A stretch of 64,000 bases of DNA from Terrimicrobiaceae bacterium (lineage in GTDB: Bacteria > Verrucomicrobiota > Verrucomicrobiia > Chthoniobacterales > Terrimicrobiaceae): contig JBAYTU010000002.1 of assembly GCA_041675465.1 (NCBI GenBank), forward strand, positions 17,821 through 81,820. Direction: 5' to 3'. Below the pieces are notes generated by a model that worked only from the letters and a program-made list of their open reading frames with translations, made no database searches and was not told the origin of the DNA. Each line of letters starts with the position of its first letter. The stretch's first letter is position 1. The position numbers were made by a program, and so were the translations under genes. Of the stretch, positions 40,737-60,355 are shown in pieces.

Positions 40737-40764
40737 TCGAAAATCCCCCTGAGGTCTTGCCGCA

Positions 40765-44469: not shown

Positions 44470-45434
44470 GAGCGCGAAAGAGCGGACATCTGATAGTATT
44501 CGAGGAGCCGGTCAATTTCTTCCTCCTGCCGCCGGGGCACGGCGATCCCCGCCCGGAGGAGAGCATCCGAACGAAAATCGAGAGCGGGGCTCACATCTTG
44601 AACGACCTGGCAGGGCCTCTCGATTTCAGGGCTAAACCCGAAAATCCGGTGGCAGCGTTCTTGGACCGTGACAGCGACTTCCCAGATGGTGGGGGCCCAT
44701 CCTCCCCCGAGATTGAAAACGCTACCCGAGGGAACAGGCTCCGGTAATCCGGTCAGCCGATGGATCGCCTCGACAGCACCGGAAATGGAGATGAAGTCCC
44801 GCCTCTGAGCACCGCTCGTTTTCAATACCATCTTGCGTGTTTCAACTGCCTGGCGGCAGAGGTCGTTGATGGCCAACCTCCCGCACTTGGTCTCATCGCT
44901 CGCCGGCACACCAAAACCGTTCGATAGCCGGACGACAATTCCCCGCATCTCGCGGTTCTTTGTCCCCTGGATGACTTCCTTTTCGCCGGCAGAGTTGCTG
45001 GCTGCATAAGGATGGGGGTTTCTTGGGATCGAGTCCTCGGTAACGACCCCTTCGAGCGGAGCAGAATAAACGTGCGCCGTGGAGAGAAAGACAAACATCT
45101 TGACCCGGTTCCTGCAGGCCGCTCGGACAAGCCTCGCCGTTCCGAGTCGGTTCATTTCAAAAGCGCCGCCAGGATCCGCCGCGCAGTCGGCGGCATCCAT
45201 CCCGGCCGCATGGATGACCACGTCGGTTTCCCTGCAGGCGTCGGAAAGCGAAACATCATCGTCCCAGACCGTCTTTCTCACCTCCGCCCGGGGAAGCCAT
45301 GCCGGATGCGGGCGAGCGCTCCTGGAGCCAAGGACAACCCGATGGCCTGCCTCATGCAAATAGTGGGCCATTCTCCCGCCCAAAAACCCGAACCCGCCGG
45401 TGACAAGATAGGTCATTCCATTTCGGAGAATCAC
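44466..45434 (-). CDS. Extended-SDR nucleotide-sugar reductase-like protein with an atypical YxxxN site
   Basis: YLVTGGFGFLGGRM Rossmann motif. The catalytic region reads HPYAASNSAGE (codon AAC at 44996..44994, verified in the DNA). GTGA overlap start. Confidence 0.7.
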   Translation of the reverse strand: MILRNGMTYLVTGGFGFLGGRMAHYLHEAGHRVVLGSRSARPHPAWLPRAEVRKTVWDDDVSLSDACRETDVVIHAAGMDAADCAADPGGAFEMNRLGTARLVRAACRNRVKMFVFLSTAHVYSAPLEGVVTEDSIPRNPHPYAASNSAGEKEVIQGTKNREMRGIVVRLSNGFGVPASDETKCGRLAINDLCRQAVETRKMVLKTSGAQRRDFISISGAVEAIHRLTGLPEPVPSGSVFNLGGGWAPTIWEVAVTVQERCHRIFGFSPEIERPCQVVQDVSPALDFRSDALLRAGIAVPRRQEEEIDRLLEYYQMSALSRS

Positions 45435-45889
45435 CAGGCTGCCGGAAACCGGACGCCAACGCTGTCTTCGGAAACGAGTTCCCCTTCCGCCGGATCATGC
45501 GGAAGATCCGTGCAGTTTGCCAACAGCGCCGGATCAGCACCCAGGCATTGGAAACCGTAGTGAAGCATCTGGGGAATGGTCAGGCGAAAATATCCGTCCG
45601 GACGCCCGAGATCAAAATGCTCGACCAATCCCCGCGTCGGAGAGTTTTCGCGCGAATCGAATACGGCCACCCGGATCCTCCCCGCCGGCACGACAAAGTT
45701 TTGCGTCTGGAGTTTGTGTCGTTTCCAGGCTTTCAGCACGCCGGGCAGCACTTCGGAAAAGTAAACCTCGCCGAAGCGGGAAAACCCGGGCTCGTCGCAG
45801 CGGAGCATGCGCAACAAAGTCCCCTGGTGGTTTTCAATCAGTCGGAGCGGCGTCAGGATCACCCCGTCTATCTCGGTTTCACTTTTCAT
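45431..45889 (-). CDS. RmlC-like cupin sugar-nucleotide 3,5- (or 5-/3-) epimerase
   Basis: Trimmed to ATG 45889 (MKSETEIDGV, ATGA overlap). GVLKAWKRHKLQTQNFVVPAGRIRVAVFDSRENSPTRG is collinear with the RmlC core. Confidence 0.7.
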   Translation of the reverse strand: MKSETEIDGVILTPLRLIENHQGTLLRMLRCDEPGFSRFGEVYFSEVLPGVLKAWKRHKLQTQNFVVPAGRIRVAVFDSRENSPTRGLVEHFDLGRPDGYFRLTIPQMLHYGFQCLGADPALLANCTDLPHDPAEGELVSEDSVGVRFPAAW

Positions 45890-46980
45890 GTTTTCATCCA
45901 GACGGCATCCCGATCTTTGGCCAACGCACAATATTGACGGATTTGCCCCGAGGAAAACGAAGTGTCGGAGATGCGGTTCCGCGACCACTCCCGATACCAG
46001 TCAACCGTCAGTTCGACCGTCTGGAAAAACTCCAGCACGGGTTTCCATTGGAGATAAAAGAGCGCCTTGTCGCAGTTGAGCTTCAGGAGCGTGGCCTCGT
46101 GTTCGCGCTTCCCGGTTCCCGGGGGTGCATCCCAGCGCAATTCGGGCCAGCGTTGGGCCATGGCTGCAAGCAACTCTCCAACCGAATGGTTGACTGTGGC
46201 GTCGGGCCCAAAATTAAATGCCTCTCCATGCAGATCTTTTTCGGACTCCGCCAAGCGGGCGGCCAAGTGGAGATATCCGCTGAGCGGTTCGAGCACATGT
46301 TGCCATGGACGCGTCGCGCCGGGATTACGGACGACCGCCTGTTCCCCGCGCGCCAACGCCCGCATGCAGTCGGGAACAATCCGGTCTTCGGCCCAATCTC
46401 CTCCCCCGATGACGTTTCCCGCCCGCGCGATGGCAACGCGGATGGGGCTCGTTTTGAAAAATGAGTGCCAGTAGGACTGCGCGATAAGATCTGCACAGCT
46501 TTTCGACGCGCTATACGGGTCATGCCCCGCCAACGCATCACATTCGCGATAACCCCAGCACCACTCGTCGTTGCGATAGGCCTTGTCGCTGGTGATCATC
46601 AGCGCGGAGCGCACGGATGGAGAATTGCGCAAACATTCCATCACGTTCACCATTCCCATCGCATTGACTTCGAATGTCGACGCCGGGTCATTGTAGGATT
46701 TTTTCACCAACGCCTGGGCGGCCATGTGAAAAACAAACTCCGGCTGGAATCTCTGAAAAACCTCGAACAGGCGGGTGCGATCGCGGACATCTCCGGTGAA
46801 ATGTTCCATCTGGCCTTGGAGGCCGATCAAATCGAAGTGCGAGTGGGAGCCCACGCTTCCCAGGGAATATCCCGCCACTTCGGCACCGAGCTCCCTGAGC
46901 CACAGGGAAAGCCAGGAGCCCTTGAAGCCGGTGTGGCCGGTCACCAAAACACGCTTGCCGGAGTAAATCCTATTGAACAT
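45886..46980 (-). CDS. rfbG: CDP-glucose 4,6-dehydratase
   Basis: Trimmed to ATG 46980. MFNRIYSGKRVLVTGHTGFKGSWLSLWL and DPYSASKSCADL are the canonical RfbG/DdhB pattern. Confidence 0.9.
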   Translation of the reverse strand: MFNRIYSGKRVLVTGHTGFKGSWLSLWLRELGAEVAGYSLGSVGSHSHFDLIGLQGQMEHFTGDVRDRTRLFEVFQRFQPEFVFHMAAQALVKKSYNDPASTFEVNAMGMVNVMECLRNSPSVRSALMITSDKAYRNDEWCWGYRECDALAGHDPYSASKSCADLIAQSYWHSFFKTSPIRVAIARAGNVIGGGDWAEDRIVPDCMRALARGEQAVVRNPGATRPWQHVLEPLSGYLHLAARLAESEKDLHGEAFNFGPDATVNHSVGELLAAMAQRWPELRWDAPPGTGKREHEATLLKLNCDKALFYLQWKPVLEFFQTVELTVDWYREWSRNRISDTSFSSGQIRQYCALAKDRDAVWMKT

Positions 46981-47977
46981 CGTTTTTTTCCATTGTTGGT
47001 TTCGGGGATCCGTCTGATGAAAAACCGGCTCCAGCCGACACGGATTCCAGAGCAGCATGGATCCGGGCAGCCAGATAGGCGTTTCCCTCTACAGTCAGAT
47101 GGATGGTATCGACAAAGAATCCCGGCTCTATGCCGTCCAGCGTGCAGATATAAGGGATGTGCCGTTCGCGTGCGACACGTTCCTGGATCCGGTAAAGGTC
47201 GATCTGCCTGACGGCCTCGGGCCACCTCGGGTCAGACCAGGAGATCGTCCTTTTCGCACCGTCGTAGTCCCCTTTGCCCAACAACCCCACAGTCTCCTTT
47301 TTGAATGGCCAGAGTTGCTGGACCATCAACGTGGCGGGGATGTTGCGCAGGTTTTGCTCATACAAGGACTCCCAGGGATTCACTGAGGGAAATGGATCGT
47401 GAATCTCGTGGCCGAACAGCTTGACTTGAAGAAAGCGATATTCGGCCTTCTTCAAGATCAGCCACAATTTCATGAAATCCCGGAAACCTCCCGCGTGACG
47501 TTCCGGTCCGGGGTACCGGTTGATATTGTAACCAAGCCCGTGATCGTTGCGGCCCGCGTAGTAGACAAGCACGGGCGCGGAAAGTTTTTCTCTCTCGATC
47601 AGGGCGACATGGTTTTGCGACGTCGCGCCGGATAAGCCGACATTGAGGACGCTGACGCCCCGGAGCCTGGCGAGCTGTGCGGGCCAGGTATGGTCGTCGT
47701 CAACCTCGAGACCCATTGTGGAGGATTCTCCAAGCGCGATAATATCGGGGTTGCACCCCTCTCCACGGAACCCTTCCGGCCCTATCTTGTAGGTGATGTC
47801 TCCCCGTTTGTAGGTGCCCGGTCGAAATTTGAAATACCCGTCAAATTGGGCCACGGGAAGTTCGTAGCCCGGCACCTTCTCGAAAGGCAGGACGAGATAG
47901 GAAAATCGAAAAAACACACACAGCGCAAAAAGAGCCGCGCCGAGGTTGATGAGGATGAAGACTGCTTTACGCTTCAT
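46970..47977 (-). CDS. Membrane-anchored SGNH/GDSL-type hydrolase
   Basis: Trimmed to ATG 47977 (MKRKAVFILINLGAALFALCVFF anchor). IIALGESSTMG (block I, with Glu in place of Asp), YYAGRNDH and VDTIHLT (DxxH). Confidence 0.6.
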   Translation of the reverse strand: MKRKAVFILINLGAALFALCVFFRFSYLVLPFEKVPGYELPVAQFDGYFKFRPGTYKRGDITYKIGPEGFRGEGCNPDIIALGESSTMGLEVDDDHTWPAQLARLRGVSVLNVGLSGATSQNHVALIEREKLSAPVLVYYAGRNDHGLGYNINRYPGPERHAGGFRDFMKLWLILKKAEYRFLQVKLFGHEIHDPFPSVNPWESLYEQNLRNIPATLMVQQLWPFKKETVGLLGKGDYDGAKRTISWSDPRWPEAVRQIDLYRIQERVARERHIPYICTLDGIEPGFFVDTIHLTVEGNAYLAARIHAALESVSAGAGFSSDGSPKPTMEKNDVQ

Positions 47978-48069
47978 TTTGGTGGCGGTGATGCACGGGC
48001 AATACCCGGCGAAACCGATAGAAGAGCGCCAGAGGTTGTGGGCGGGGGAAACAGCGGGACACGGGCGGG

Positions 48070-48837
48070 TTATCCGGTCCAAGGAGCGCGTCCCGAAGCC
48101 CACATTTCCTCGAGGGCATGCTTGTCCCTCAGGGTATCCATGCACTGCCAGAACCCGTCATGACAATACGCCATCAATTCGCCCCTCCTCGCGAGCCGTT
48201 CAAGCGGCTGCCGCTCCAGCATGGTGTGATCCCCTTCGATACAATCGAAGATTTGCGGTTCGAAAACAAAAAACCCGCCGTTGATCCAGCCTTCTCGCGC
48301 CTGGGGCTTTTCCTCAAAAGACAGAACCCGGTCCCCCTCTACCGCCAATTCCCCGAACCTCACGGGTGGCCGCACGGCGGTGACTGTCGCCAGCCGTCCG
48401 TGGGATTTGTGAAACTCCACGAGCCGCGAAAGATCGATGTCTGAAACACCGTCTCCGTAAGTGAGGAGAAATGTCCCCGTTGGCCGCAAAAGCTCTTTCA
48501 GCCGCAGAAGGCGCCCGCCGGTCATGGTATCGGCTCCCGTGTCCGCCATGGCCACCGTCCAGTCTTCAACCATGGGGTTCCTGTAGCTCACGGAATTCGA
48601 TGCGAGAGCGACTGTCAGGTCGCTTTTCCTCGCGTGGTAATTCAGGAAGTAATCCTTGATCACATCGCCTTTGTAGCCGAGCGCCAGCACGAAATCTCCG
48701 AACCCGAAACGCTCGTAGATTTTCATGATGTGCCAGAGGATCGGGCGATTTCCGATTTCGACCATCGGCTTCGGTTTGAGTTGTGTTTCTTCGCTCAGGC
48801 GTGTGCCGAGCCCGCCGCACAGGATAACGGTTTTCAT
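48070..48837 (-). CDS. rfbF: Glucose-1-phosphate cytidylyltransferase
   Basis: MKTVILCGGLGTRLSEETQLKPKPMVEIGNRPILWHIMKIY; 255 aa, canonical RfbF/DdhA. Confidence 0.92.
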   Translation of the reverse strand: MKTVILCGGLGTRLSEETQLKPKPMVEIGNRPILWHIMKIYERFGFGDFVLALGYKGDVIKDYFLNYHARKSDLTVALASNSVSYRNPMVEDWTVAMADTGADTMTGGRLLRLKELLRPTGTFLLTYGDGVSDIDLSRLVEFHKSHGRLATVTAVRPPVRFGELAVEGDRVLSFEEKPQAREGWINGGFFVFEPQIFDCIEGDHTMLERQPLERLARRGELMAYCHDGFWQCMDTLRDKHALEEMWASGRAPWTG

Positions 48838-50765
48838 GAATAAACTCCTGGAGATGTCGGTTTGGCGGCGGAGTCCGCCGCCGTAGGGGGCCCGTCCAAA
48901 ATATTCCGCCAGCCGCGCATTGCCGGATCGAAATGGAAATAATCCTCGCCGTCAAACTCATGCGCTCCAAACCTGACAGCATGGATCGCTTTCGAGAACT
49001 CCGTGCTGTCGGTTACGAAATGGGCACCTTTCCGGTTGCGGAGAGGACTGTAGTTCAGATCGTGGTTTGGATACAAAACGATCACCGGTAGCCGGGCCAG
49101 ATAGGCATCCAAGGCCGCAGAGGTGATATTGCTGGAATAAGCCGCGTCATGGGAAGCAAGAAGCTCCCCGATAGGCTCCGTTGTAATGTTCATTTTCAAC
49201 CCACTGTATCGGGAAAGATCCGGCAGATAGTTGGGATGAGGCTTGAGCGTGAATTCGATGTCCGGGGCCAGTGCAAGCGCGGAGGAGGCCAGGAGATCCA
49301 GCATACGGGCGGTTTCAGCAGGGAGGTAGTCTCCGAGGACCAGGACTCGAAAAACGTCGTCTTTAAGTTTTGGTTCAAATTTGCGCGATTTGCAAAATGG
49401 CTGCAGGTAACCGAATCGCAAAGCCTCGCACTCGCAAACCTCAAAGGGAATTCCGGCCCCTGCGATAGCCTCGCGCATCCCCTTGCCGTTGACGGCCACA
49501 ACATCGGGCATTGGCCTGGGATATGAGGAGGAAGGGTCGCTTCCAAATCCGAAATACCGGAGATCCCAGAATCTGATTGTGGAGTGCGCGACCCCGACCA
49601 TCTTCCCATGTCCGTGCCTGCGCCAAGCATGGACACATGCCTGTTCCCACGGTTGGTTTTCCCACAGAAAAAGTCCGAGCGATTGGTGCGGGACGACCGA
49701 GAGGGCAGCGTCGAAAAGCTCTTTCCAGAAAAGATTCATCACAGCCCGGCTGCCTCGCAGGGTCGAATTCCAATCGGTTGATATCAGTGGCCAAAGGCCA
49801 AGCGAGCCTTCGCGGGTCGTTCGCAAGGCAGGGCCGAGTCGCCAGGAAACAAGAACCAGACGGATCCAGTTTCGGAGCGTTCTCATCACGACATCCCAGG
49901 AGAGAAAGTCGTCAATGAACGCATGTCGTTCGTGGCCGACCGCCCCGGTGTTAAAATTCTCCAACAGGGTCAATGCGTCTCCCGCTCCAGGGACGGCAGG
50001 GTGCGGGTAGAAAAGATGCACCCAATTCACCGGGGTTTCGAGATTCCTGACAAGGTCCGTGACTTCTCCCCAGTAGCGGGAGCGAAACTCCCCGGTCCCG
50101 GGTTCCAAATGGAAAAAATAGGAGAAAATCGTTGTGGCCTTTTCTCCGCCTTTCCACGGCGACGAAACCCGGCTTAAAAACTTCCGGCGGATCCACACTT
50201 GGCGGATCAGAGTTGCCAACCCGTGCAATATATGCGGCAATTTATCACGAAGGCTGGTTTTGCTCTGTGACTCTCCACCCTGATTCGCCGGGGGAATCTG
50301 TTGGAATTCCAGGTGTCGTTTTTTGCAAAATCCGCCCAGGATTTTCCGGAGCCGCCCGTCGTGGCTGACGAGCACGACCTTCCGGGCTTTTTTCTCGGAA
50401 AGGATTTCCTCCAAAGCGAACAGGCGCAGGACATCTTTGATCCATGGGGATTTCCACGGGCTTTTTTCCACGAAGGGCGTCATCCACCAGTAACTGAAAC
50501 CATCTCCCAAGGACAGATGCTCGATCAGGCTCTTCCCGAAAATCACGGCCTCCCCGAAGTCTTCCGCCCACGCCAGAAACATTTGCCTGAGCCGTCCGCC
50601 GTTTTGCTCGACGTAATCCAGCAGGGAAAGTTCGCAGCTCCCGGGGTGGCGGTTCCACGTGCAGACGAAACCGTCGCCCATTGCGGGCGGGGCATCCGGC
50701 CCGTCCCAGAGGATCACTGTATCCCCGGCAGACACGATCCTTTGGTCGGGATTCAAGGGATGCAA
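48834..50765 (-). CDS. Large uncharacterised surface-carbohydrate biosynthesis protein; C-terminal half is GT-B-like with a KPHP motif
   Basis: 643 aa, no TM helices. C-terminal VLVLGDY...FTLKPHPNY...AAYSSNITSAALDAYLARLPVIVL resembles nucleotide-binding halves of CMP/CDP-dependent transferases. TTG start is uncertain. Confidence 0.45.
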   Translation of the reverse strand: MHPLNPDQRIVSAGDTVILWDGPDAPPAMGDGFVCTWNRHPGSCELSLLDYVEQNGGRLRQMFLAWAEDFGEAVIFGKSLIEHLSLGDGFSYWWMTPFVEKSPWKSPWIKDVLRLFALEEILSEKKARKVVLVSHDGRLRKILGGFCKKRHLEFQQIPPANQGGESQSKTSLRDKLPHILHGLATLIRQVWIRRKFLSRVSSPWKGGEKATTIFSYFFHLEPGTGEFRSRYWGEVTDLVRNLETPVNWVHLFYPHPAVPGAGDALTLLENFNTGAVGHERHAFIDDFLSWDVVMRTLRNWIRLVLVSWRLGPALRTTREGSLGLWPLISTDWNSTLRGSRAVMNLFWKELFDAALSVVPHQSLGLFLWENQPWEQACVHAWRRHGHGKMVGVAHSTIRFWDLRYFGFGSDPSSSYPRPMPDVVAVNGKGMREAIAGAGIPFEVCECEALRFGYLQPFCKSRKFEPKLKDDVFRVLVLGDYLPAETARMLDLLASSALALAPDIEFTLKPHPNYLPDLSRYSGLKMNITTEPIGELLASHDAAYSSNITSAALDAYLARLPVIVLYPNHDLNYSPLRNRKGAHFVTDSTEFSKAIHAVRFGAHEFDGEDYFHFDPAMRGWRNILDGPPTAADSAAKPTSPGVYS

Positions 50766-51703
50766 TTGTCGTCCAGACCACCGATGGCAGCCCGGCCCAT
50801 CGCCAGGATCGCCTCATAGGAACTTCCCCCAATGTGTGGGGTCACCAAAAAATTGGGCAATTCCAGCAACCGCAAGTCGCGGGGAGGTTCGTCTGCCAGA
50901 ACGTCGAATCCGGCACCGGCGAGTTTTCCCGTGCCGAGCATTTCTTCCAAAGCCTTTTCATCAACCAACCCTCCTCTGGCGCAGTTGATCAAGATCGCGG
51001 AAGATTTCATCAGGGCCAAACGTCGGGCATCCAGCATCCCGCGGGTTGTGTCGTCAAGCGGCACGTGGAGCGTGACGATGTCCGCCTCCCGGAGAAGCTC
51101 CTCCAGCGACGACTCCTCGACGGAGTGCTGATGATAAAAGCCGGGGAACTTCAGGATGTCGTTCGCCATTACCCGGCAATCGAAGGCCCTCAGAAGCGGC
51201 ACCAAGTCTTTGCCGATATGCCCGCATCCGACGATGCCGACGGTCTTTCCCGTCAACTGGCGTCCCACATGCTGGCGCCAAGTGCCCGAGAGAACCTCCC
51301 GGTTCGAGGCAGGGATATGCCGGAGGAGCGCGATGGCGAAAGCGATGACCAGCTCGGACACGGAGCGGCGGTTCACGCCTGGCGTCCAACCGAGAGCCTT
51401 CCCGAATTTCCGCATGGCCTCCCTGTCGATCATGTCGAGCCCGACGCCATATTTGCTGACGACCTTCAGTTGCGGCAACTGCCGGAGAACTTCCCCGCTG
51501 ATGGTTTCCAATGCCGTGATCGCCTTGTCATGTCCGCTCAAAAACCGCACGAGCGACTCGTTCTCCAGTTGTGCCCCACCGTCATTGAATGTCACCCTGG
51601 AGTATCGGGCGAGCAGCTCCGCCCGAAGCACGGGGTTCTTTGAAAACGATCGGGAGCAAACCGCGACACGGTCTTCGGTATTCACAGATTCGTCTCCAGG
51701 CAT
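50753..51703 (-). CDS. D-isomer-specific 2-hydroxyacid dehydrogenase (PGDH-like)
   Basis: ORF 50753..52138 trimmed to ATG 51703; an alternative GTG at 51685 gives a GTGA overlap. GIVGCGHIGKDL, NCARGGLVDE and TPHIGGSS motifs. Confidence 0.85.
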   Translation of the reverse strand: MPGDESVNTEDRVAVCSRSFSKNPVLRAELLARYSRVTFNDGGAQLENESLVRFLSGHDKAITALETISGEVLRQLPQLKVVSKYGVGLDMIDREAMRKFGKALGWTPGVNRRSVSELVIAFAIALLRHIPASNREVLSGTWRQHVGRQLTGKTVGIVGCGHIGKDLVPLLRAFDCRVMANDILKFPGFYHQHSVEESSLEELLREADIVTLHVPLDDTTRGMLDARRLALMKSSAILINCARGGLVDEKALEEMLGTGKLAGAGFDVLADEPPRDLRLLELPNFLVTPHIGGSSYEAILAMGRAAIGGLDDNCIP

Positions 51704-52434
51704 CCGTTGTCGGCCAGCACATCCAGGGAGCCCTCCTTTTCCCTCCAGCAAACCCGGCCGCCGGCCCCTTCGACGATCGCGATCCCCGCAGCCACATCCC
51801 ACAGCATGATGTTTTCTTCGAAATAAGCCTCCGCCCGCCCGTCGGCAACGCACGCGAGGGACGAGGCCGCAGAACCGAGCATGCGGACTTTCGCGAAAGG
51901 AGAAACCCGGTCCCGGAAGCTCCCCCACGCTTTCTCCGCCGAAAAATCGAAGCGGACCGGGAACCCGGTGCAGATGGCCGCACGGGAAACGTCGCCAATC
52001 CTGCTCACCCGGATTTCCCGCCCATCCCTCCATGCCCCCAATGGCTTTCCTCCCCAACAAAGCGATTTTTTCACGATATCGAAAATGACCCCGAAAACCG
52101 GGCGGTCCGCTTCCCATAAGGCGATGGAGACCGCACACGGCCCCAGATTCCTTAAATGGTTGAACGTCCCGTCCAGGGGATCGACAATGAACCGGTGCCC
52201 GCCCGGTCGCGCGCCCGGGACAAGCCCACGCTCCTCGCTCAAGATTTCCAAACCGGTTCCCGACAAGGCACCGAGAATGACATCTTCCAGCACGGCATCG
52301 GCCAGCGACTTGACTTCACGGGGAAACTCCTCGCTGAAGGAGAAATCTTCAAGGTGCCCCCCCTTCTCCAACCGCTCCCCGGCCCGTGCCGCCGTGGATT
52401 TTGCCAGCTCCAGCAACGCCGGAATATCAACCAT
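51682..52434 (-). CDS. Inositol-monophosphatase-fold sugar phosphatase
   Basis: FIVDPLDGTFNH and WDVAAGIAIVEGAGG motifs; 250 aa. Confidence 0.85.
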   Translation of the reverse strand: MVDIPALLELAKSTAARAGERLEKGGHLEDFSFSEEFPREVKSLADAVLEDVILGALSGTGLEILSEERGLVPGARPGGHRFIVDPLDGTFNHLRNLGPCAVSIALWEADRPVFGVIFDIVKKSLCWGGKPLGAWRDGREIRVSRIGDVSRAAICTGFPVRFDFSAEKAWGSFRDRVSPFAKVRMLGSAASSLACVADGRAEAYFEENIMLWDVAAGIAIVEGAGGRVCWREKEGSLDVLADNGCLETNL

Positions 52435-53038
52435 TTTTCACAAGACGCATCAGGTAGGCCCCGACCAGATGGTCCAGGATCAGATGAATATCCTCTGCCG
52501 GACCGTATTCCTTCTGACCCGTGGGAATATGAATCCCCGAATCGGCCATTTGCTTCAATCGCCCGCCATCGAATGCCGTGATGGCAACGGTCCGGATGCC
52601 AGCCGATGAGGAATGTTCGAATGCCCGGACCAGGTTGGGTGAGTTCCCGGAGGCGGAAATCGCGACAACGACATCGCCCTTTTTTCCCAGAACCTTCAAC
52701 TGGCGGACGAAAATTTCCTCGAACCCGTGGTCGTTTCCTATCGCCGTCATGATGGCGGCATTGTCCGCGAGACTCACAGCCCGGAACGGCTTTTCATAGT
52801 CGTTCGTGCCGATGGCGAGATCGTTCGCAAAGTGGCTCGCCGTGGCGGCACTACCCCCGTTTCCAATGAAAAACACCGTCGCTCCACACTCCCTGGCCTC
52901 CAGCAAGACCCGGATGAATCCCGCAACCTCCCCGGCATCCACTTTCCCCAGGAGCAACCGGAGATATTCGAGATAACCGTCGGCAAAGGCTTCCGGGTCG
53001 CTGGTGTAAATGGCGTCGATATTATTGCTTTTGCTCAT
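52427..53038 (-). CDS. SIS-domain sugar-phosphate isomerase (GmhA/KdsD-like)
   Basis: Trimmed to ATG 53038 (MSKSNNIDAIY). FFIGNGGSAATASHFANDL and AISASGNSPN motifs. Confidence 0.85.
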   Translation of the reverse strand: MSKSNNIDAIYTSDPEAFADGYLEYLRLLLGKVDAGEVAGFIRVLLEARECGATVFFIGNGGSAATASHFANDLAIGTNDYEKPFRAVSLADNAAIMTAIGNDHGFEEIFVRQLKVLGKKGDVVVAISASGNSPNLVRAFEHSSSAGIRTVAITAFDGGRLKQMADSGIHIPTGQKEYGPAEDIHLILDHLVGAYLMRLVKNG

Positions 53039-54071
53039 TGGGATCTGGGATGTTGTAGGCCCGCCTCCACTGCGGGTCGGCATAGTAAATCTGAAACACG
53101 AGACGCATGGTGCGGAGGGCATCGTCCGAACTGCCCTGGTTCACCGGAAGATCCTGGAGAATGCAGTCCGCGAATGCACGGATCTCGGCGTCCCATGAGG
53201 GATCGCGGTTGTAGCGGGTCACGGTCTCACGAGGGTCGCCCCTGTCGTTGTCCGGGTCCGCTTGAACAACCGTCAACGTCTCGGCCCCGTAACTTTTTGT
53301 CCCGGTGAGGATGCCGCCCAAAATCAAGCTTCCCCGCTCCAGGTTGATGTCGAGATGGAACCGGTGCCTCCACTGGGTGGCCGAAGAATTCAGCATCCCA
53401 ACGATGCCGGTTGGCGTCCGCATGAGCGCGTAGGCGTTGTCCTCCACGTCGTATCCCCAGTGGCCGTTGGAAATAAAACTATGCACCTCGGTGAAATCGC
53501 CCGCAAAAAGCCGCATGAGATCGACCATGTGAATTCCCTGGTCCAGCAGGACCCCCCCCCCGGCGACTTCCCGCCTCGTCCTCCAGTCGGGCTGGTTGAA
53601 CGTGATCAGCTTCGCTTTCCCATAGACGCCGCGGATATTGATGATGTTTCCCAATTCTCCTCCGCGAAGAATCTTCACCGCATCCACGACGGACTCGTGG
53701 TAGCGGTGGTTGAAACCATACATGAGCTTGAGCCCGGGGCTTTTCTGCTCGCAGGCGATCACATCAAGAATTTCCCGCACGCTCCGGCCCGGCGGCTTTT
53801 CGCAAAAAACATGGAGCCCCTTGTTCAAGCCGGCCATGACAACCTCCGCCGCAATATCATTGGTCAGACAAACAATCAGGGCATCGAGCGGCTGTTCGAG
53901 AAGGCGGTGGTAGTTTGTGTGATACCGGGTCCCGTCCGGCAATGTCCCCTCGCCATCGAACGTCCGGTCGCACACGGCGACGACTTTCATGCCGCCATGC
54001 CGCACGATGCACTCGTGGCGCCGCTTTCCGACTACGCCATATCCGGCAATGCCAACCATTAATGGTTTCAT
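53022..54071 (-). CDS. Gfo/Idh/MocA-family NAD(P)-dependent sugar oxidoreductase
   Basis: Trimmed to ATG 54071. MVGIAGYGVVGKRRH Rossmann start and VFCEKPPGRS (EKP motif). Confidence 0.85.
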   Translation of the reverse strand: MKPLMVGIAGYGVVGKRRHECIVRHGGMKVVAVCDRTFDGEGTLPDGTRYHTNYHRLLEQPLDALIVCLTNDIAAEVVMAGLNKGLHVFCEKPPGRSVREILDVIACEQKSPGLKLMYGFNHRYHESVVDAVKILRGGELGNIINIRGVYGKAKLITFNQPDWRTRREVAGGGVLLDQGIHMVDLMRLFAGDFTEVHSFISNGHWGYDVEDNAYALMRTPTGIVGMLNSSATQWRHRFHLDINLERGSLILGGILTGTKSYGAETLTVVQADPDNDRGDPRETVTRYNRDPSWDAEIRAFADCILQDLPVNQGSSDDALRTMRLVFQIYYADPQWRRAYNIPDPNEQKQ

Positions 54072-54122
54072 GGTCAAGGTGTTCTGATTTTCGATCCGGC
54101 TGGCTGCCATTATCCGGAGTTG

Positions 54123-54905
54123 CTACTGCACGACGGGGGAGTTGAGATAGAGGGCGAGAGTCTCGTCCCCCTGCAAGCGGCTTTCGGCGAATGCCAACTC
54201 CTCAGGCGTATCCACCCCGATCGTTTCAAATTCCGTAAGGACCATCCGGATCCGCCCCCCATTCTCAAGGATCCTGTTCATATCCACGGATTCGATCTGC
54301 TCCAATTGCGTCTCCTCCATGCGGTTGAAGCTCAGGAGCGTGTCGCGGCGGAAGGCGATGATCCCGGTCTGCATGAACATCGGCACCCCGGTGGAACCTT
54401 TCCACGGGGATGGAATTGGCTCGCGGGAAAAGTAGAGTGCGTCCCCCCACTTGTTCACGACCACCTTGACGTTGTTCACGTCGCGGAATTCCTCCAGCGT
54501 GCGCAGCCGGGACATGACATTGACAATCTCCACCGCCGGATCCTTAAAATGAAGCAGCGTCTCGGCGATGGTTTCCGGGCGGATCAGTGGCTCGTCGCCC
54601 TGCACCATCACAATGATGTCCACAGCCTCTCCGGTCTCCCGTTCGATGTGCTGAAAAGCTTCAGCAGTCCGGGTCGTGGCGCGGGTGTGGGAGGTGGCCG
54701 TCATGACCGCGCTTCCGCCGATGCTCCGGACATACTCCGCGATCGGCTCGTCGCAGGTGGCCACATAGGCGGCATCGAGTCCCCGGGCGAGGCGCGTCCG
54801 GTGATAACAGTGACCGACCATGGGCATGCCGTGAATCAGCGCCATCGGCTTGTTCGGAAAACGGGATGCGCTCAGGCGCGCGGGGATGATGCCGATCGCT
54901 TTCAT
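54123..54905 (-). CDS. KdsB-family CMP-ulosonic acid synthetase (3-deoxy-manno-octulosonate cytidylyltransferase-like)
   Basis: Trimmed to ATG 54905. Collinear with E. coli KdsB as remembered: IGIIPARLSASRFPNKP, VQGDEPLI, VKVVVNKWGDALYFSREPIP, GVDTPEEL. Confidence 0.85.
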   Translation of the reverse strand: MKAIGIIPARLSASRFPNKPMALIHGMPMVGHCYHRTRLARGLDAAYVATCDEPIAEYVRSIGGSAVMTATSHTRATTRTAEAFQHIERETGEAVDIIVMVQGDEPLIRPETIAETLLHFKDPAVEIVNVMSRLRTLEEFRDVNNVKVVVNKWGDALYFSREPIPSPWKGSTGVPMFMQTGIIAFRRDTLLSFNRMEETQLEQIESVDMNRILENGGRIRMVLTEFETIGVDTPEELAFAESRLQGDETLALYLNSPVVQ

Positions 54906-54931
54906 TGTTGGTGCAAAGAAGAAAGTAGAAC

Positions 54932-54961
54932 CACGGATGGACACGGATGAACACGGATCAT
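54932..54961 (-). repeat. Three tandem 10-bp repeats just upstream of the cytidylyltransferase start
   Basis: Plus strand reads cacggatgga / cacggatgaa / cacggatcat. Located 27-56 nt upstream of ATG 54905, in the 111-nt spacer. Confidence 0.9.
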
Positions 54962-55016
54962 AAAAGAGTTCTACACATCACTTGAATCATCGTTGGCGGG
55001 AGTTTTCCGATGGCTT

Positions 55017-55778
55017 TCACTTTTTGAGCTCCATGAATTTGGCACTTCCGGCCCTGGCGCATACATCCAGCATGCGCTGATCGACGCTGTAGGCAATGAA
55101 AGTGTATCCTTCCGAGACCGCTTTCGCCAGCGCCGACAAGCCGGGCTCGACGATGTGTGTTCCCACCGGGGTCCCATGCTCGCCGGCAATTGTCCGGATG
55201 CGTGCCATCGCGTCCAGGAATCCGGGATTTGCAAACTGGCCGGGAATTTCCATCGAGCAAGCAAGATCGTATGGGCCGATGATCACGCCATCAACTCCGG
55301 GAACGCTGATAATTTCGCCAAGATGGTCGATGGCCGAGATGTGCTCGATTTGAACAATCACGATCGGACCGTCGGACTGCCACGTCAAATACTCGGCGAA
55401 CTTCGCGCCGTAGCCCTGGGCGCGGGAAAGCCCGACCCCGCGCGTTCCCTTGGGAGCGTAGCGGGTGGCTGACACGGCGAGCCTGGCCTGCTCGGCGTTG
55501 TTGACCATCGGAACCACGATGCCGTGTGCCCCGGCATCCATCACCCTCTTGATCTGGTTTGCATCGTTCGAAGTCAGCCGGACAAGCGGAGTCACCCCGC
55601 AAAGGTCGATGATCCGGATCATCTCGCAGGCGATCTCAATACCGATTGCCGTGTGTTCCAAATCCACGACAAGCCACTCGAATCCGGCACGGGCCATGAT
55701 TTCCGCCGTGCTCGGATTCCCGATGCTAATCCAGGACCCCAGGCTCAATTCCCGGTCGCGCAGTTTGGACTTCAGCAT
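55017..55778 (-). CDS. HpcH/HpaI-family class II (metal-dependent) pyruvate aldolase
   Basis: 253 aa. GFEWLVVDLEHT, HGIVVPMVNNAEQA and IIGPYDLACSM match the 2-keto-3-deoxy-acid aldolase family. Confidence 0.88.
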   Translation of the reverse strand: MLKSKLRDRELSLGSWISIGNPSTAEIMARAGFEWLVVDLEHTAIGIEIACEMIRIIDLCGVTPLVRLTSNDANQIKRVMDAGAHGIVVPMVNNAEQARLAVSATRYAPKGTRGVGLSRAQGYGAKFAEYLTWQSDGPIVIVQIEHISAIDHLGEIISVPGVDGVIIGPYDLACSMEIPGQFANPGFLDAMARIRTIAGEHGTPVGTHIVEPGLSALAKAVSEGYTFIAYSVDQRMLDVCARAGSAKFMELKK

Positions 55779-55779
55779 G

Positions 55780-56547
55780 TTACTTCGCCCCCCTCAGCCG
55801 CTTGTTGACATAGATGACATCCACCCAATCGGTCCTGCCATTCATGGGGTTTTTTGCAATGTGGCTGATGTCGTAGAGACGGAGCCCCGCAGGGATCAGA
55901 AACCGTTCGATGTCGGAAAAGGAAAGGGATCTCTCGTAGTAGTCGTAAAACATCAATTCCGTCAGGACGACATCGACATCCCGGAGCCTGGCGCCAAAAC
56001 CTTCAAGAACCTCCGGCTCGTATCCCTGGGTGTCGATTTTCAGCAGGTTGATCCGCGCGATGTCGTGGTGGGCCAGATAATCGTCCAGCCGGAGCACGGG
56101 CACCACGCGCTCGTGATTGAGCGCCTTCTCATACTCCGGGAGCCGGTCGGCGGACTCCTCTTCAATCTCTTTTAGGCGGACAGAATCCAGGCTTCGAAGA
56201 TTGATTTTGTGAAATCCGGAAATCCCCTTGCTGATGTCGTGGGTGAAAAATAACGCGCCTTCGCTGGCGGCGTTCCCGGCCGCGCTGGGATTGATGACAA
56301 TATCACCTTCGGGAAAAGCGTTTTTGGCGGCCTCCAGATCGCTCCAGCATTCCTCCTGGGGCTCGAATGCATGGATTTTCGCCTCCGGCCAGAACCCCTT
56401 GAATTCGCGGATCGTCCCCCCAACATTGGCGCCGACATCAAAGACAACCGGCTTGGGGAAGGGAATCAGAAACTGGAGTGTTTTTTCACGAGAAAACTTT
56501 GCGAGGTATTCTGCCGTGCGCTCTTCGTTGGATGGATAGGCCTGCAT
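55780..56547 (-). CDS. FkbM-family methyltransferase
   Basis: VFDVGANVGGTIREF...IHAFEP and LLKIDTQGYEPEVLEG. Confidence 0.85.
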   Translation of the reverse strand: MQAYPSNEERTAEYLAKFSREKTLQFLIPFPKPVVFDVGANVGGTIREFKGFWPEAKIHAFEPQEECWSDLEAAKNAFPEGDIVINPSAAGNAASEGALFFTHDISKGISGFHKINLRSLDSVRLKEIEEESADRLPEYEKALNHERVVPVLRLDDYLAHHDIARINLLKIDTQGYEPEVLEGFGARLRDVDVVLTELMFYDYYERSLSFSDIERFLIPAGLRLYDISHIAKNPMNGRTDWVDVIYVNKRLRGAK

Positions 56548-56571
56548 TTTTATTTGAATACTATTCCCCTG

Positions 56572-57399
56572 TTATTTTTCCCAGATTTGATTGAAGGCGC
56601 TTGAAAAAGCGCTGTTATGAACCAGCTCGGAATGCGCCTTTTCGACAAGGCGGAAACCGGCCTGCTTTAGGGATGCGGCAGAGACCTCCGCCTGTTCCAA
56701 AAATCCATCGTTGATCTCGATGAGTATCCCCTTGACGTGGTTGAGAACATCGATCCCGCCCTGGAGAATGAGATGCTCCAGCCCATCCACATCCATCTTC
56801 ACATAGTCTGGAAGCGGAATCGCCAAATTGCTGGCGGCATCATCCATGGAAACTCCCAGTGTTTGAAACGAGAAGATTTTGTTCATCCGCTTTCCATCAT
56901 GACCAAAATCTTCCCCGAAAGTGGACAGCGCCCCCCCCCACTCCATCGATGTCATATTGAGACTTTGGACCTCCATTTTCCGGCAAAGCGGCAACGGGAA
57001 AAGAGTCACCTGGTCGGAAAGGCCGTTGAGGTTTACGTTTCTGGCCAAGATTTCCAGATTAAATACCGATGGTTCGAAGGCATATACACGGCAATCTCGT
57101 GCTTTGGCCGCATAGCAAGAATACAGGCCGACATTGGCTCCGATATCCCAAAAAGTCGAGCGGCGTGAAAGTGAATCAATCCAGCGCAGTGTTTCCGGTT
57201 CTTTTGAGGAAAACGTGGCGGCACGGGATTTGTTCAACAGATTCGGAATGGAAAACCGCAGGTCGATATTTCCGTGCCGGACTGACATATTCCGGTTCAA
57301 GCACACCTTCAGCAAAACATCGGCCACCCGTTCAATCAAATAGAACCGCAGGAAAGTCTCAAAAATACGCTGAAGAATTACGATAAGGTTTTTTTTCAT
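56572..57399 (-). CDS. FkbM-family methyltransferase
   Basis: FWDIGANVGLYSCYAA...VYAFEP and YVKMDVDGLEHLILQG. GC is lower than in the upstream genes. Confidence 0.85.
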   Translation of the reverse strand: MKKNLIVILQRIFETFLRFYLIERVADVLLKVCLNRNMSVRHGNIDLRFSIPNLLNKSRAATFSSKEPETLRWIDSLSRRSTFWDIGANVGLYSCYAAKARDCRVYAFEPSVFNLEILARNVNLNGLSDQVTLFPLPLCRKMEVQSLNMTSMEWGGALSTFGEDFGHDGKRMNKIFSFQTLGVSMDDAASNLAIPLPDYVKMDVDGLEHLILQGGIDVLNHVKGILIEINDGFLEQAEVSAASLKQAGFRLVEKAHSELVHNSAFSSAFNQIWEK

Positions 57400-57442
57400 T
57401 TATCTTGGGTTTTTCATCTTGCCTAAGTCGAACTGCTGGGCA

Positions 57443-59344
57443 TTACGCTCTAGCGTAATCCGTAAACATGATGTCTGAATTTAATGCTTTTTTGGCAATG
57501 TGAATATGCGCCCATAGAATATAGCTGGTCAAAGCAAACAGCCGCACGCTGCCGCTTTTCCCCTCGAAGAACTGTTTGTTTTTAACAATATGGTCCACCA
57601 GATCAGAGCTGATGATGTCACCGATAATTTCTTTGTTTCTTTGAATAAATCCGATAATCAGGCAGCGAATGTCACAGTCTGAAAACCAGATGTGGAGAGG
57701 CATCGTGGGTCCGCTTTTAGGGGCTGTTACCACATAATCAGGCAAAATACTCTTTGCGAGCTCACGAAGGAGTCCTTTCGGGCCGTTCTTAGTTTTTTCA
57801 AAGTGTGGAACACCCAGCATTAGCTCAACCAAACGATAATCAAGGAACGGAGACCGATTTTCAACGGACGATGCCATGCACCCCATATCTGCCTTCGTAT
57901 TCTGGTTCTTGGTTGCCGTGTAAATATTGGCATAGTTGATTTGATTCATCCAATCGCCAATTCCGAAAGTGTTGATGTGTGAGAAATAGTCGTTCGCCAA
58001 GCTGGTCAAATCGCAAACTACTTTGCGCTCTACGTCGCGCATCACATCAAAAAATGCACCCCCGACCGAGGAGGCATGACTCATGTAAGGATTGAAATAT
58101 AAATCCCCGGTCATTTTCAGCCTTCTGGAAACGCGTCCATGCGGCATTTGGTTTGAGAGAAAATAGATGAGATCCTCACCCCACGAAGTGAATCGGCTTT
58201 GCTTACATTGCAAAATGCCGGGGATTCGGTTGAAGGTTTTTTGCCAGGGGTAACCACCAAAAGATTCATCGCCTCCCACTCCCGTGTAAATAACTTTGAT
58301 CCCCTCTGCGGCAGCTCGTTGGGCTAGTGCATAAAACACCAGGTTTCCAGAATCAACACAGATCTCTTCAAAATTATTGGCAATGCCCAGAATGTTAGCA
58401 TTCCAATAGTCAAAATCCACGACCACAGCAGAATTGATCATTCCACGCTCTCGGGAGAATCTTGGTGGAATTGCTACATCGGTAGAGTTATTTTCAAAGC
58501 TTTCCTTGCCGACGATGTTTGCGGTTATGGCAAAAATGTCGTTGTTGGATTTCAATGCATAATGAGCAATAAGAACAGAGTCTAGTCCTCCGCTCAGGAA
58601 TACTCCAACTGGCACATCGCTCCGCAATCGTTTATTGATCGCATCGCTAAATGTTTGATCGATGCGGCTAATCAAGCTTTGGGAGTCCGTTTGAACAAAA
58701 GTTGGAGTGTACCAGCGCTGCTCCTTAATCTCCATCTCTTGATTTATATGAATATAAGAACCCGGCTTAATGCTGAATATCCCTTCAAACAACGTAATGG
58801 GATCAACCAGCAACCAAGCATACAGGTTGATAGCTAGACTCGTGTGATTTGCCCGGCATTCAATTAGCCTCTCAAGCGCTTTGATTTCTGAGGCAAAAAC
58901 AATCTCTTTCGATGCCTTGTGATAGAAGAGAGGCTTTTTTCCGTACCGATCACGAATCAGATATTTTTGCGATGTTCTCTCATCAATAATTACCATCGAG
59001 AACATCCCGTTGATACGGGATAGGAAGGCAATGCCGTATTTTTTATATAAAAACGGGAGAATTTCAACATCGCAAGTTGTCTTCGGAATAAACTCGTTTT
59101 GGTGCTCTATAATTAATTCAATATAGTTATAGATTTCGCCATTTAAATATATGGTGACCTTGTCGTCGCGAAACGGTTGCATGCCGGCTAGACTCAAGTC
59201 GAGAATGGAAAGGCGACTAAACCCAACACCCCACCCAGGTTCATGAGTTATTCCACGCATATCGGGCCCACGATGCTCTATCGACCCCAGTGCCTCCACT
59301 AGATCACGTTTACTTTCACAAAAATATCCAACAAATCCACACAT
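57443..59344 (-). CDS. Glutamine-dependent asparagine synthase-type amidotransferase (AsnB/WbpS-like)
   Basis: MCGFVGYF Ntn-Cys start and VFLSGGLDSVLIAHY PP-loop; 633 aa; about 42% GC. Confidence 0.9.
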   Translation of the reverse strand: MCGFVGYFCESKRDLVEALGSIEHRGPDMRGITHEPGWGVGFSRLSILDLSLAGMQPFRDDKVTIYLNGEIYNYIELIIEHQNEFIPKTTCDVEILPFLYKKYGIAFLSRINGMFSMVIIDERTSQKYLIRDRYGKKPLFYHKASKEIVFASEIKALERLIECRANHTSLAINLYAWLLVDPITLFEGIFSIKPGSYIHINQEMEIKEQRWYTPTFVQTDSQSLISRIDQTFSDAINKRLRSDVPVGVFLSGGLDSVLIAHYALKSNNDIFAITANIVGKESFENNSTDVAIPPRFSRERGMINSAVVVDFDYWNANILGIANNFEEICVDSGNLVFYALAQRAAAEGIKVIYTGVGGDESFGGYPWQKTFNRIPGILQCKQSRFTSWGEDLIYFLSNQMPHGRVSRRLKMTGDLYFNPYMSHASSVGGAFFDVMRDVERKVVCDLTSLANDYFSHINTFGIGDWMNQINYANIYTATKNQNTKADMGCMASSVENRSPFLDYRLVELMLGVPHFEKTKNGPKGLLRELAKSILPDYVVTAPKSGPTMPLHIWFSDCDIRCLIIGFIQRNKEIIGDIISSDLVDHIVKNKQFFEGKSGSVRLFALTSYILWAHIHIAKKALNSDIMFTDYARA

Positions 59345-59460
59345 AATAAGTTTGTTACTGTTGTTTTTATTCTGCCCTCACTCCCACACGAATGCATCCC
59401 CTGATTTGACACACAGCTTTTCCGGCGCAGATTTCATCAGCGACATTCATTTTCTTTCAC

Positions 59461-60186: not shown

Positions 60187-60355
60187 ATGTGTTTTTGATT
60201 GCGGCTTACCCTATCAGCCTTCGTTTAGTTGAGTCTGGTAGCGTTTCGCTACTTGTCACTGTTAATATGATACTCGCATCGTGGTGGGGGAGTGCGGCGA
60301 TTCAACGATCTGTCGCCTATGTGAAAATCCTGCTTAGGGTCAGGAATCATTTCAT

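Follow-up and report, generated by a model that had tools for sequence, protein, structure and literature searches.

Must every sugar acid that bacteria activate with cytidine monophosphate (CMP) be built from phosphoenolpyruvate (PEP)? [quoted passage not shown] These synthases serve both as genomic markers for ulosonic acids and as drug targets. Seven genes in a metagenome-assembled genome of Terrimicrobiaceae (Verrucomicrobiota) raise the question anew. They lie at positions 48834–55778 on the minus strand of the 64-kb stretch of DNA that we analyzed (hereafter, the window), and they combine a class II HpcH/HpaI-type aldolase with a KdsB-like cytidylyltransferase. Our analysis suggests that they probably represent one variant of a widespread, uncharacterized cassette that makes a CMP-activated 2-keto sugar acid, a Kdo-related ulosonic acid, for a surface polysaccharide, with the aldolase used instead of KdsA or NeuB.

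Gene composition of the cassette

The listing of open reading frames in the window was cross-checked with an independent gene caller run on the source contig, and both found the same seven co-directional minus-strand genes at 48834–55778. For three of them, the starts assigned by the independent caller are shifted by 3–6 codons, giving 345 residues for the Gfo-type oxidoreductase, 310 for the dehydrogenase and 640 for the protein of 643 residues. A first-pass annotation of this DNA had described the genes as consecutive and mostly overlapping. Indeed, four of the six junctions overlap (Gfo/SIS, SIS/phosphatase, phosphatase/dehydrogenase and dehydrogenase/643-residue protein), and there are two gaps, one of 111 nt between the aldolase and cytidylyltransferase genes and one of 51 nt between the latter and the Gfo gene.

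The aldolase, a metal-dependent 2-keto-acid aldolase of 253 residues (55017–55778), is the proposed C–C bond former, and the KdsB-like cytidylyltransferase of 260 residues (54123–54905) is proposed to activate the sugar acid with CMP. They are followed by a Gfo/Idh/MocA NAD(P) oxidoreductase (53022–54071; 345–349 residues), an accessory enzyme with a putative tailoring or precursor-forming role, and by a GmhA-like single-domain SIS sugar-phosphate isomerase (52427–53038; 203 residues). Next come a phosphatase with the inositol monophosphatase (IMPase) fold (51682–52434; 250 residues), which is the phosphate-removal module of this variant, and a D-2-hydroxyacid dehydrogenase resembling phosphoglycerate dehydrogenase (PGDH) (50753–51703; 310–316 residues), a core member of the cassette. 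The last gene (48834–50765) encodes a TIGR04326-family protein of 640–643 residues with a predicted glycosyltransferase B (GT-B) fold, the proposed glycosyltransferase for the CMP-sugar acid. Searches with Pfam and NCBIfam profiles bore out the six family assignments made in the first-pass annotation.

The same annotation had reported no PEP-dependent synthase in the window, and the searches agree. Neither NeuB (PF03102) nor DAHP_synth_1 (the KdsA family) was found by Pfam on any called gene of the window, and the window gave no tblastn match to the verified NeuB of a related locus. The possibility that a KdsA or NeuB homolog lies just outside was also considered; none was found in the ~1.8 kb past the high-coordinate end of the window. 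The window holds only one aldolase gene and only one gene of the CTP_transf_3 family.

The aldolase–cytidylyltransferase linkage is widespread

Using the aldolase alignment as a query, we scanned GTDB, represented by one genome per species, and retrieved 67 loci. Of these, 56 were informative (aldolase identity of at least 37% and at least 900 nt of downstream sequence) and 38 were full (at least 7 kb on both flanks). The synteny that had been singled out for checking proved to recur: a KdsB-like gene is located within 3.2 kb of the aldolase gene in 49 of the 56 informative loci, and in 31 of them it is immediately downstream. The carriers include Verrucomicrobiota, Cyanobacteria (Prochlorococcus), Gemmatimonadota, Acidobacteriota, Elusimicrobiota, Omnitrophota, Nitrospinota, Thermodesulfobacteriota, Bdellovibrionota, Actinomycetota and Dehalococcoidia, and, among Pseudomonadota, Polynucleobacter, Gallionella, Pelagibacteraceae, SAR86, Magnetococcales and an Olavius symbiont. 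Altogether, the core of the cassette recurs in more than a dozen phyla.

The composition of the 38 full loci separates this core from its accessories. The cytidylyltransferase is present in 36 and the dehydrogenase in 35, followed by the Gfo enzyme (28), the SIS isomerase (21) and a class I methyltransferase (20). Gfo and SIS genes occur together in 21 loci, Gfo occurs alone in 7, and 10 have neither. The slot for phosphate removal is filled in several ways: by an IMPase alone in 7 loci, by a haloacid dehalogenase (HAD) alone in 8, and by an AroB-like protein, paired with a short-chain dehydrogenase/reductase (SDR), with no other module in 19; two modules coexist in one locus, and three loci have none. 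TIGR04425, a family annotated as cyclizing sugar phosphate phospholyase, includes the AroB-like protein (468 bits). One example, in which it replaces the phosphatase together with the SDR, is found at 14156–15962 of locus L004, and the same replacement is seen in 18 other related loci. The three modules are almost mutually exclusive, which amounts to non-orthologous displacement at a single step. That three unrelated phosphate-removal modules share one slot argues for the existence of a phosphorylated sugar or sugar-acid intermediate.

The recurrent core thus consists of the aldolase, the cytidylyltransferase, the 2-hydroxyacid dehydrogenase and a phosphate-removal module, with the Gfo enzyme and the SIS isomerase as common accessories. 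The first-pass annotation had read the locus as a look-alike of the Kdo pathway. The isomerase, phosphatase and CMP-activation families on which that logic rested are all present, but the SIS isomerase and the Gfo enzyme turn out to be accessories, whereas the dehydrogenase belongs to the core. The core can be compact. In Acuticoccus sp. I52.16.1, a minimal operon of four overlapping genes (aldolase, cytidylyltransferase, PGDH-like dehydrogenase and HAD) occupies positions 40686–43847 of plasmid NZ_CP094833 (locus L071), and the minimal set is also present in SAR86 and Prochlorococcus loci. The Acuticoccus plasmid is 97 kb long and comes from a cultured marine alphaproteobacterium. Other culturable carriers include Polynucleobacter and Leptospira interrogans serovar Hardjo (its "sru" locus), and the cassette is also found in the complete genomes LT606947.1 and CP064976.1.

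In 6 of the 38 full loci, a complete NeuB-type pathway for nonulosonic acids is encoded beside the cassette (within 9 kb), and this number rises to about 15 of all 67 loci when full flanks are counted. NeuB pathways coexist with the cassette, and therefore the aldolase route is additional to NeuB and not a substitute for it. In several AroB-like variants (L007, L014, L032, L046, L047 and L068), a DegT aminotransferase and a sulfotransferase are encoded downstream of the cassette, which suggests that the product is converted further, to aminated or sulfated forms.

The aldolase belongs to a distinct clade

The window aldolase matches the HpcH_HpaI family (PF03328) with an E-value of 2e-30 and 106 bits. 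It also matches the equivalog models of HpaI, GarL and RhmA over the full length, but with scores of 173.8, 161.4 and 139.1 against cutoffs of 368.8, 406.75 and 441, respectively, that is, less than half of each cutoff. At the level of structure-bearing relatives, it aligns full-length with E. coli HpaI (PDB 4b5s; E-value 2.5e-39) and matches a solved hydroxyketoacid aldolase (6r62; E-value 4e-33). Residues H42, R67, E145 and D171 correspond to H45, R70, E149 and D175 of E. coli HpaI and are invariant in 12 homologs. Both marks of the class II HpcH/HpaI superfamily, the Pfam domain and the His/Arg/Glu/Asp set, are therefore present in the window aldolase.

In a neighbor-joining tree, which has no bootstrap and is indicative only, the cassette-linked aldolases form one clade. 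This clade leaves out E. coli HpaI, an aldolase from a Salipiger plasmid and one unlinked homolog. Grouping with catabolic orthologs that lack the linkage, which would have spoken against the first-pass annotation, was thus not seen. The Salipiger enzyme is encoded between L-arabinonate dehydratase and another dehydratase, a context of sugar-acid catabolism. Its identity of 42% is within the range observed inside the cassette clade. The sub-cutoff scores, the separate clade and the biosynthetic context together argue against the assignment of the aldolase as an ordinary HpaI, GarL or RhmA. A phage search with the aldolase produced distant Staphylococcus matches only.

The cytidylyltransferase is a KdsB homolog

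The cytidylyltransferase matches CTP_transf_3 (PF02348) with an E-value of 6e-39. It exceeds the cutoffs of two KdsB subfamily models (273.5 against 255 for NF009905 and 257 against 193 for NF003952) but stays below those of the kdsB equivalogs (143.7 against 155.2 for TIGR00466 and 172.9 against 281 for NF003948). The closest solved relative is KpsU, the E. coli capsule enzyme (1gq9). In KpsU and KdsB, catalysis involves a Lys and two Mg-binding Asp residues (PMC3149649), and residues K19, D104 and D232 of the window protein align with K19, D98 and D225 of KpsU. The possibility that the enzyme is a CMP-synthetase for nonulosonic acids was considered and rejected, as its PseF score is negligible (28.9 bits against a cutoff of 205.7).

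The cassette is present in Actinomycetota (L060) and Dehalococcoidaceae (L051), lineages generally held to be without lipopolysaccharide (LPS) and Kdo. Leptospira interrogans Lai has two kdsB genes, and most Leptospira have one (PMC4758666). The occurrence of the cassette in LPS-less lineages, together with the second kdsB in L. interrogans Lai, argues that the cassette cytidylyltransferase is not a housekeeping KdsB.

Accessory and remaining core enzymes

The Gfo enzyme has both the N- and the C-terminal GFO_IDH_MocA domains (PF01408, PF22725 and PF02894). Among solved proteins, it is closest to inositol 2-dehydrogenase, glucose-fructose oxidoreductase and aldose-aldose oxidoreductase. The isomerase consists of a SIS_2/SIS domain only. 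Its best NCBIfam model is gmhA (114.7 bits against a cutoff of 209.45) and its nearest solved relative is GmhA of Burkholderia pseudomallei. The metal-binding and catalytic residues of the latter are His 64, Glu 68, Gln 175 and His 183. In the same numbering, all 27 of 27 cassette SIS orthologs have Glu 68 replaced by Asp and Gln 175 replaced by Glu, and they keep His 183; the cassette SIS proteins are accordingly a distinct GmhA-like subfamily with putatively altered metal ligands. KdsD/KpsF was another candidate identity for the SIS protein, ruled out as it is without CBS domains.

The phosphatase matches Inositol_P (PF00459; E-value 5e-37) and the dehydrogenase matches 2-Hacid_dh_C (PF02826; E-value 2e-55). 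For the dehydrogenase, the top models and solved relatives are phosphoglycerate dehydrogenases and glyoxylate/hydroxypyruvate reductases, with PGDH as the top model and all scores below equivalog cutoffs.

A putative glycosyltransferase of the TIGR04326 family

The 643-residue protein had been listed as unknown. It has no Pfam match, in keeping with that label, but it is not without a family: residues 36–623 match TIGR04326, "surface carbohydrate biosynthesis protein", with 469.1 bits against a cutoff of 250. When the TIGR04326 profile was searched against PDB sequences, a chance match was all that emerged, and no solved protein could be found at the sequence level. The AlphaFold model, based on 52 homologs, has a mean predicted local distance difference test (pLDDT) score of 87.7 and a predicted template modeling (pTM) score of 0.88. 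Foldseek matched it to GT-B enzymes with E-values from 4e-8 to 1e-5, among them NeuC, OtsA, LmbT, PglA and, at rank 13, a CMP-dependent polysialyltransferase (5wcn). According to this model, the TIGR04326 protein has a GT-B fold.

The C-terminal Rossmann domain contains a K-P-H-P motif that is invariant or nearly so among homologs. In sialyltransferases and β-Kdo transferases, the histidine of an "HP" motif protonates the CMP phosphate (PMC9587256). Seen from this protein, the tie to the cassette is strong. All three sampled TIGR04326 homologs at 38–39% identity adjoin an aldolase/cytidylyltransferase cassette, in two cases with the cytidylyltransferase as the immediately preceding gene, and 13 pairs of TIGR04326-protein and aldolase homologs come from contigs of equal size. 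We propose, with the modeled fold in mind, that the TIGR04326 protein is the glycosyltransferase for the CMP-sugar acid, this donor specificity being putative.

Another protein, of the LIC12162 family (~600 residues; TIGR04331/PF27859, annotated as "transferase"), is often encoded immediately upstream of the cassette and frequently accompanies NeuB-type genes. Examples are found at 7242–9095 of L004, 1–1410 of L074 and 1–1046 of L075, and the family is absent from the window. Homology of the two putative transferases is unsupported, as hhalign of TIGR04326 against the LIC12162-family protein returned a probability of 0.3. A gene for a "surface carbohydrate biosynthesis protein" and one for a LIC12162-family transferase come after neuABC in Herbaspirillum AU14040 (PMC6679464). 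This arrangement again ties the TIGR04326 and LIC12162 families to CMP-sugar-acid pathways.

A proposed pathway and its alternatives

How might these enzymes work together? In the scheme that we infer, along with its substrates, its order of steps, the direction in which the aldolase runs and the donor that the transferase uses, the GmhA-like SIS enzyme would convert a ketose phosphate to an aldose phosphate, which the Gfo oxidoreductase would tailor. The IMPase-fold enzyme would take off the phosphate either before or after condensation. The aldolase would join the enolate of a 2-keto acid (pyruvate, or hydroxypyruvate from the PGDH-like dehydrogenase) to the aldehyde, and the KdsB-like enzyme would link the resulting hemiketal hydroxyl to CMP. 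The TIGR04326 protein could then transfer the sugar acid onto the growing glycan, and the neighboring FkbM methyltransferases would methylate it; the product is probably O-methylated. A heptose phosphate is a candidate acceptor, given that the isomerase is GmhA-like, while the minimal cassette would have to use a central metabolite. Because the class II aldolase and the KdsB homolog are tightly and anciently coupled, we find it reasonably likely, as the first-pass annotation had proposed, that the product of the former is the substrate of the latter; it would be a 4-hydroxy-2-keto acid that can close into a hemiketal ring.

Several observations weigh against this scheme. The characterized families nearest to the aldolase (HpaI, GarL and RhmA/YfaU) are catabolic and use non-phosphorylated aldehydes. 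The dehydrogenase is conserved as much as the aldolase, yet it has no necessary role in a Kdo-type scheme. Half of the related loci swap the phosphatase for the AroB-like cyclizing phospholyase, and the product there may not be a normal sugar acid. Finally, the TIGR04326 gene is present in only about 6 of the 38 full loci retrieved via the aldolase, and genes for a cytidine diphosphate (CDP)-hexose also follow it.

The conservation of the dehydrogenase would be accounted for if the same cassette used hydroxypyruvate as the donor, made by the PGDH-like enzyme from D-glycerate (or from 3-phosphoglycerate with the help of a phosphatase). This donor would yield a 3-hydroxy 2-ulosonic acid resembling D-glycero-D-talo-oct-2-ulosonic acid (Ko) and not a 3-deoxy one. 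The dehydrogenase is indeed a universal core member, found in 35 of 38 loci and in the four-gene operon, its models are phosphoglycerate dehydrogenase and glyoxylate/hydroxypyruvate reductases, and the solved HpcH-type hydroxyketoacid aldolases include the 6r62 match. Every universal gene would get a job, and the variability of the phosphate-removal module would be explained. However, no testable sequence feature separates users of pyruvate from users of hydroxypyruvate, tailoring of the acceptor or of the product would be an equally good role for the dehydrogenase, and NAD-dependent oxidation of glycerate is thermodynamically uphill. We regard this version as rather unlikely, although worth keeping in mind. 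We consider it unlikely that the cassette is an alternative, locus-dedicated supply of ordinary CMP-Kdo or another known ulosonic acid, in the manner of kpsF/kpsU, with a reaction of the Kdo-aldolase type (arabinose plus pyruvate) bypassing KdsA. KpsU as the nearest solved relative, the two exceeded KdsB subfamily cutoffs and the presence of a sugar-phosphate isomerase and a phosphatase support such a supply. It would, however, leave the Gfo enzyme, the dehydrogenase and the methyltransferases superfluous, and the isomerase is GmhA-like, with a single SIS domain and altered metal ligands, rather than a SIS+CBS KdsD/KpsF; moreover, the kdsB equivalog cutoffs are not reached and the cassette occurs in lineages without LPS.

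The 19 of 38 loci in which the AroB-like TIGR04425 protein and an SDR replace the phosphatase raise the question of whether the product is a glycosyl donor of the ulosonic type at all. It could instead be a carbocyclic or otherwise unusual acid, or a keto-acid-derived substituent on another sugar. Dehydroquinate synthase normally cyclizes a 3-deoxy-2-ulosonate phosphate, and the cassette often adjoins NeuB-type genes, whose products bear diverse acyl groups. Against this, the variant in the window uses a plain phosphatase, tblastn found no gene for an AroB-like protein there, a dedicated GT-B protein follows the cassette, and all characterized enzymes of the KdsB/NeuA family known to us activate the anomeric hydroxyl of 2-ulosonic acids; this makes such a product improbable. 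As for incidental clustering, that is, a catabolic aldolase and a housekeeping KdsB brought together by chance in a glycan locus, one may point to the catabolic nature of the named families nearest to the aldolase and to the 42% identity with a truly catabolic enzyme, which overlaps the range of the cassette clade. Linkage in 49 of 56 loci over more than 12 phyla, a separate aldolase clade, overlapping gene ends and co-varying neighbors make chance a very improbable explanation. A cassette for a CMP-activated, Kdo-related 2-keto sugar acid made through the aldolase therefore remains our preferred interpretation. Overall, the reading of the first-pass annotation is supported in part, and comparative genomics makes it stronger.

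The cassette is the center of a larger module

Two FkbM-family methyltransferases (PF05050/TIGR01444) are encoded on the minus strand directly upstream of the aldolase gene, at 55780–56547 and 56572–57399. FkbM orthologs have the same position in L002, L004, L008 and L009; elsewhere, a class I methyltransferase gene lies between the cytidylyltransferase and Gfo genes (20 of the 38 full loci). To judge from their family and position, the FkbM enzymes probably methylate the sugar acid. On the other side, the cassette is followed by a block of minus-strand genes for a CDP-6-deoxyhexose (43564–48837). It begins with glucose-1-phosphate cytidylyltransferase (48070–48837; TIGR02623, 379 bits) and continues with a GDSL-like protein (46970–48145), a CDP-glucose 4,6-dehydratase-like protein (45886–47058), an RfbC-like epimerase (45431–45988) and an epimerase/reductase (44466–45434), ending with a family 2 glycosyltransferase (GT2; 43564–44469).

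Likewise, genes for glucose-1-phosphate cytidylyltransferase, 4,6-dehydratase, RfbC-like epimerase, reductase and GT2 come after the TIGR04326 gene in both L074 and L075. The order of the window's CDP-6-deoxyhexose genes is kept in these two loci and partly in L004, L008 and L058. The conserved series after the TIGR04326 gene spans 39825–48837 in the window, 10893–19039 in L074 and 10945–15143 in L075; L074 and the window additionally carry a deacetylase and a FemAB/DegT-like protein. Taken together, the shared flanking series and the upstream FkbM genes indicate that the seven genes are the center of a conserved module of ~17 kb. The seven-gene unit of the first-pass annotation thus recurs, but as part of something larger that includes the FkbM methyltransferases and the CDP-6-deoxyhexose block. 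Its probable products are a methylated sugar acid and a CDP-derived 6-deoxyhexose.

According to Pfam annotation of all called genes, the entire 64 kb is a single minus-strand surface-polysaccharide locus. It encodes a Wzy-like polymerase, about 12 glycosyltransferases, many methyltransferases, a carbamoyltransferase, an initiating Bac_transf enzyme and nucleotide-sugar enzymes. Tblastn of the window with a HAD from a cassette, an AroB-like protein and a LIC12162-family protein gave no match. Neither did an Rfam scan, and promoter and terminator scans of the window did not rise above shuffled controls. A patch of low GC content at 56001–62000 (0.43–0.51 compared to 0.57–0.63 elsewhere in the window) spans the second FkbM methyltransferase gene, an asparagine-synthase-like gene (57443–59344), a TylF-like methyltransferase gene (59461–60186) and a gene for a membrane protein with DUF2079; the patch was probably inserted into the locus later, by horizontal transfer. 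Small genes for DUF6036 and PIN-domain proteins, possibly of a toxin-antitoxin-like nature, lie among the glycan genes at ~5919–6446 and ~8123–8524, and a gene for an AAA_14/DUF4143 ATPase (30475–31653) lies amid glycosyltransferase genes.

Novelty and implications

The first-pass annotation did not recognize this gene combination as a described ulosonic-acid pathway, and open-access full text contained no published description of it. There, we found no paper proposing or testing the cassette pathway, only mentions at the level of annotation (Leptospira and Herbaspirillum), and no paper tying TIGR04326, TIGR04331 or TIGR04425 to an aldolase-based route. The serovar-linked "sru" locus of Leptospira is one such mention, listing an HpaI-like aldolase, an IMPase, a phosphoheptose isomerase and KdsB (10.1101/771931). 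What was known before are unnamed TIGRFAM families and genome annotations; what appears to be new is the putative biosynthesis of a CMP-ulosonic acid with a non-orthologous chain-forming enzyme.

It is quite possible, though we would stop short of calling it likely, that the cassette and its variants represent a route, unrecognized until now and phylogenetically very widespread, in which a class II aldolase builds the chain of CMP-activated sugar acids of a new class. Such a route might start from hydroxypyruvate and give 3-hydroxy, Ko-like products, and its AroB-like variants could give terminally deoxy or carbocyclic ones. In that case, TIGR04326 and LIC12162 would represent new glycosyltransferase families that use CMP-sugar acids, and as yet unknown acidic sugars would be expected on the cell surface of such abundant environmental bacteria as SAR11, SAR86, Prochlorococcus and Polynucleobacter and on that of Leptospira.

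If such an aldolase-based route exists, an entire group of acidic surface sugars escapes genome surveys keyed on NeuB or KdsA. This would be relevant to recognition of marine and freshwater bacteria by phages and grazers and to the serovar-determining LPS regions of Leptospira. In addition, the cassette provides a compact set of enzymes, with a minimum of four genes, for chemoenzymatic synthesis of CMP-activated keto-sugar acids, and a concrete genetic target for untargeted mass spectrometry of nucleotide sugars. Unassigned CMP-linked α-keto acids have already been reported, not tied to cassette genes. Specifically, the SugarBase preprint describes new CMP-linked acids in Magnetospirillum that are N-acetylated, C10 and similar to pseudaminic and legionaminic acids (bioRxiv 10.64898/2026.04.20.719630). 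As these compounds are of that type and have no tie to an aldolase, we do not claim a link between them and the cassette.

Comparison with known systems

Among the closest known systems are TIGRFAM/NCBIfam families that database curators delimited from O-antigen regions of Leptospira: TIGR04326 (LIC13510), which includes the 643-residue protein, and TIGR04331 (LIC12162) and TIGR04425, both of which have members beside the aldolase cassette in related loci. The three are defined as families, with no pathway or product assigned to them. The aldolase has the same fold and catalytic residues as HpaI, GarL and RhmA/YfaU, but it is coupled to a cytidylyltransferase and not to dehydratases or transporters. 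With the kpsF/kpsU genes of the E. coli group 2 capsule, the cassette shares the principle of a glycan locus that has its own isomerase and KdsB paralog. However, kps loci depend on housekeeping KdsA and KdsC, and have no aldolase, Gfo enzyme or 2-hydroxyacid dehydrogenase.

Nonulosonic acids are made with NeuB-type PEP-dependent synthases. The NeuB/PseI/LegI and NeuA/PseF/LegF pathways resemble the proposed one in yielding a CMP-activated 2-keto acid sugar for surface glycans, and they are found in the same type of locus, often adjacent to the cassette. They differ in that the window lacks a NeuB-family synthase and its cytidylyltransferase scores far below the PseF cutoff.

The canonical route to CMP-Kdo uses KdsD (a SIS isomerase), KdsA (a PEP-dependent synthase), KdsC (a HAD phosphatase) and KdsB. 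The proposed pathway would follow the same general plan, with an isomerase, a three-carbon extension to a 2-keto acid sugar, dephosphorylation and CMP activation by a CTP_transf_3 enzyme, and the cassette cytidylyltransferase is a true homolog of KdsB/KpsU that keeps the catalytic residues. Most of the other parts are different. The C–C bond would be formed by a class II aldolase of the HpcH fold and not by the PEP-dependent KdsA; the isomerase is GmhA-like and not a KdsD/KpsF with SIS and tandem CBS domains; and, in place of KdsC, there is an IMPase-fold phosphatase or, in other loci, a HAD of the phosphoglycolate-phosphatase type or the AroB-like protein. To this plan, the cassette locus adds two oxidoreductases and methyltransferases.

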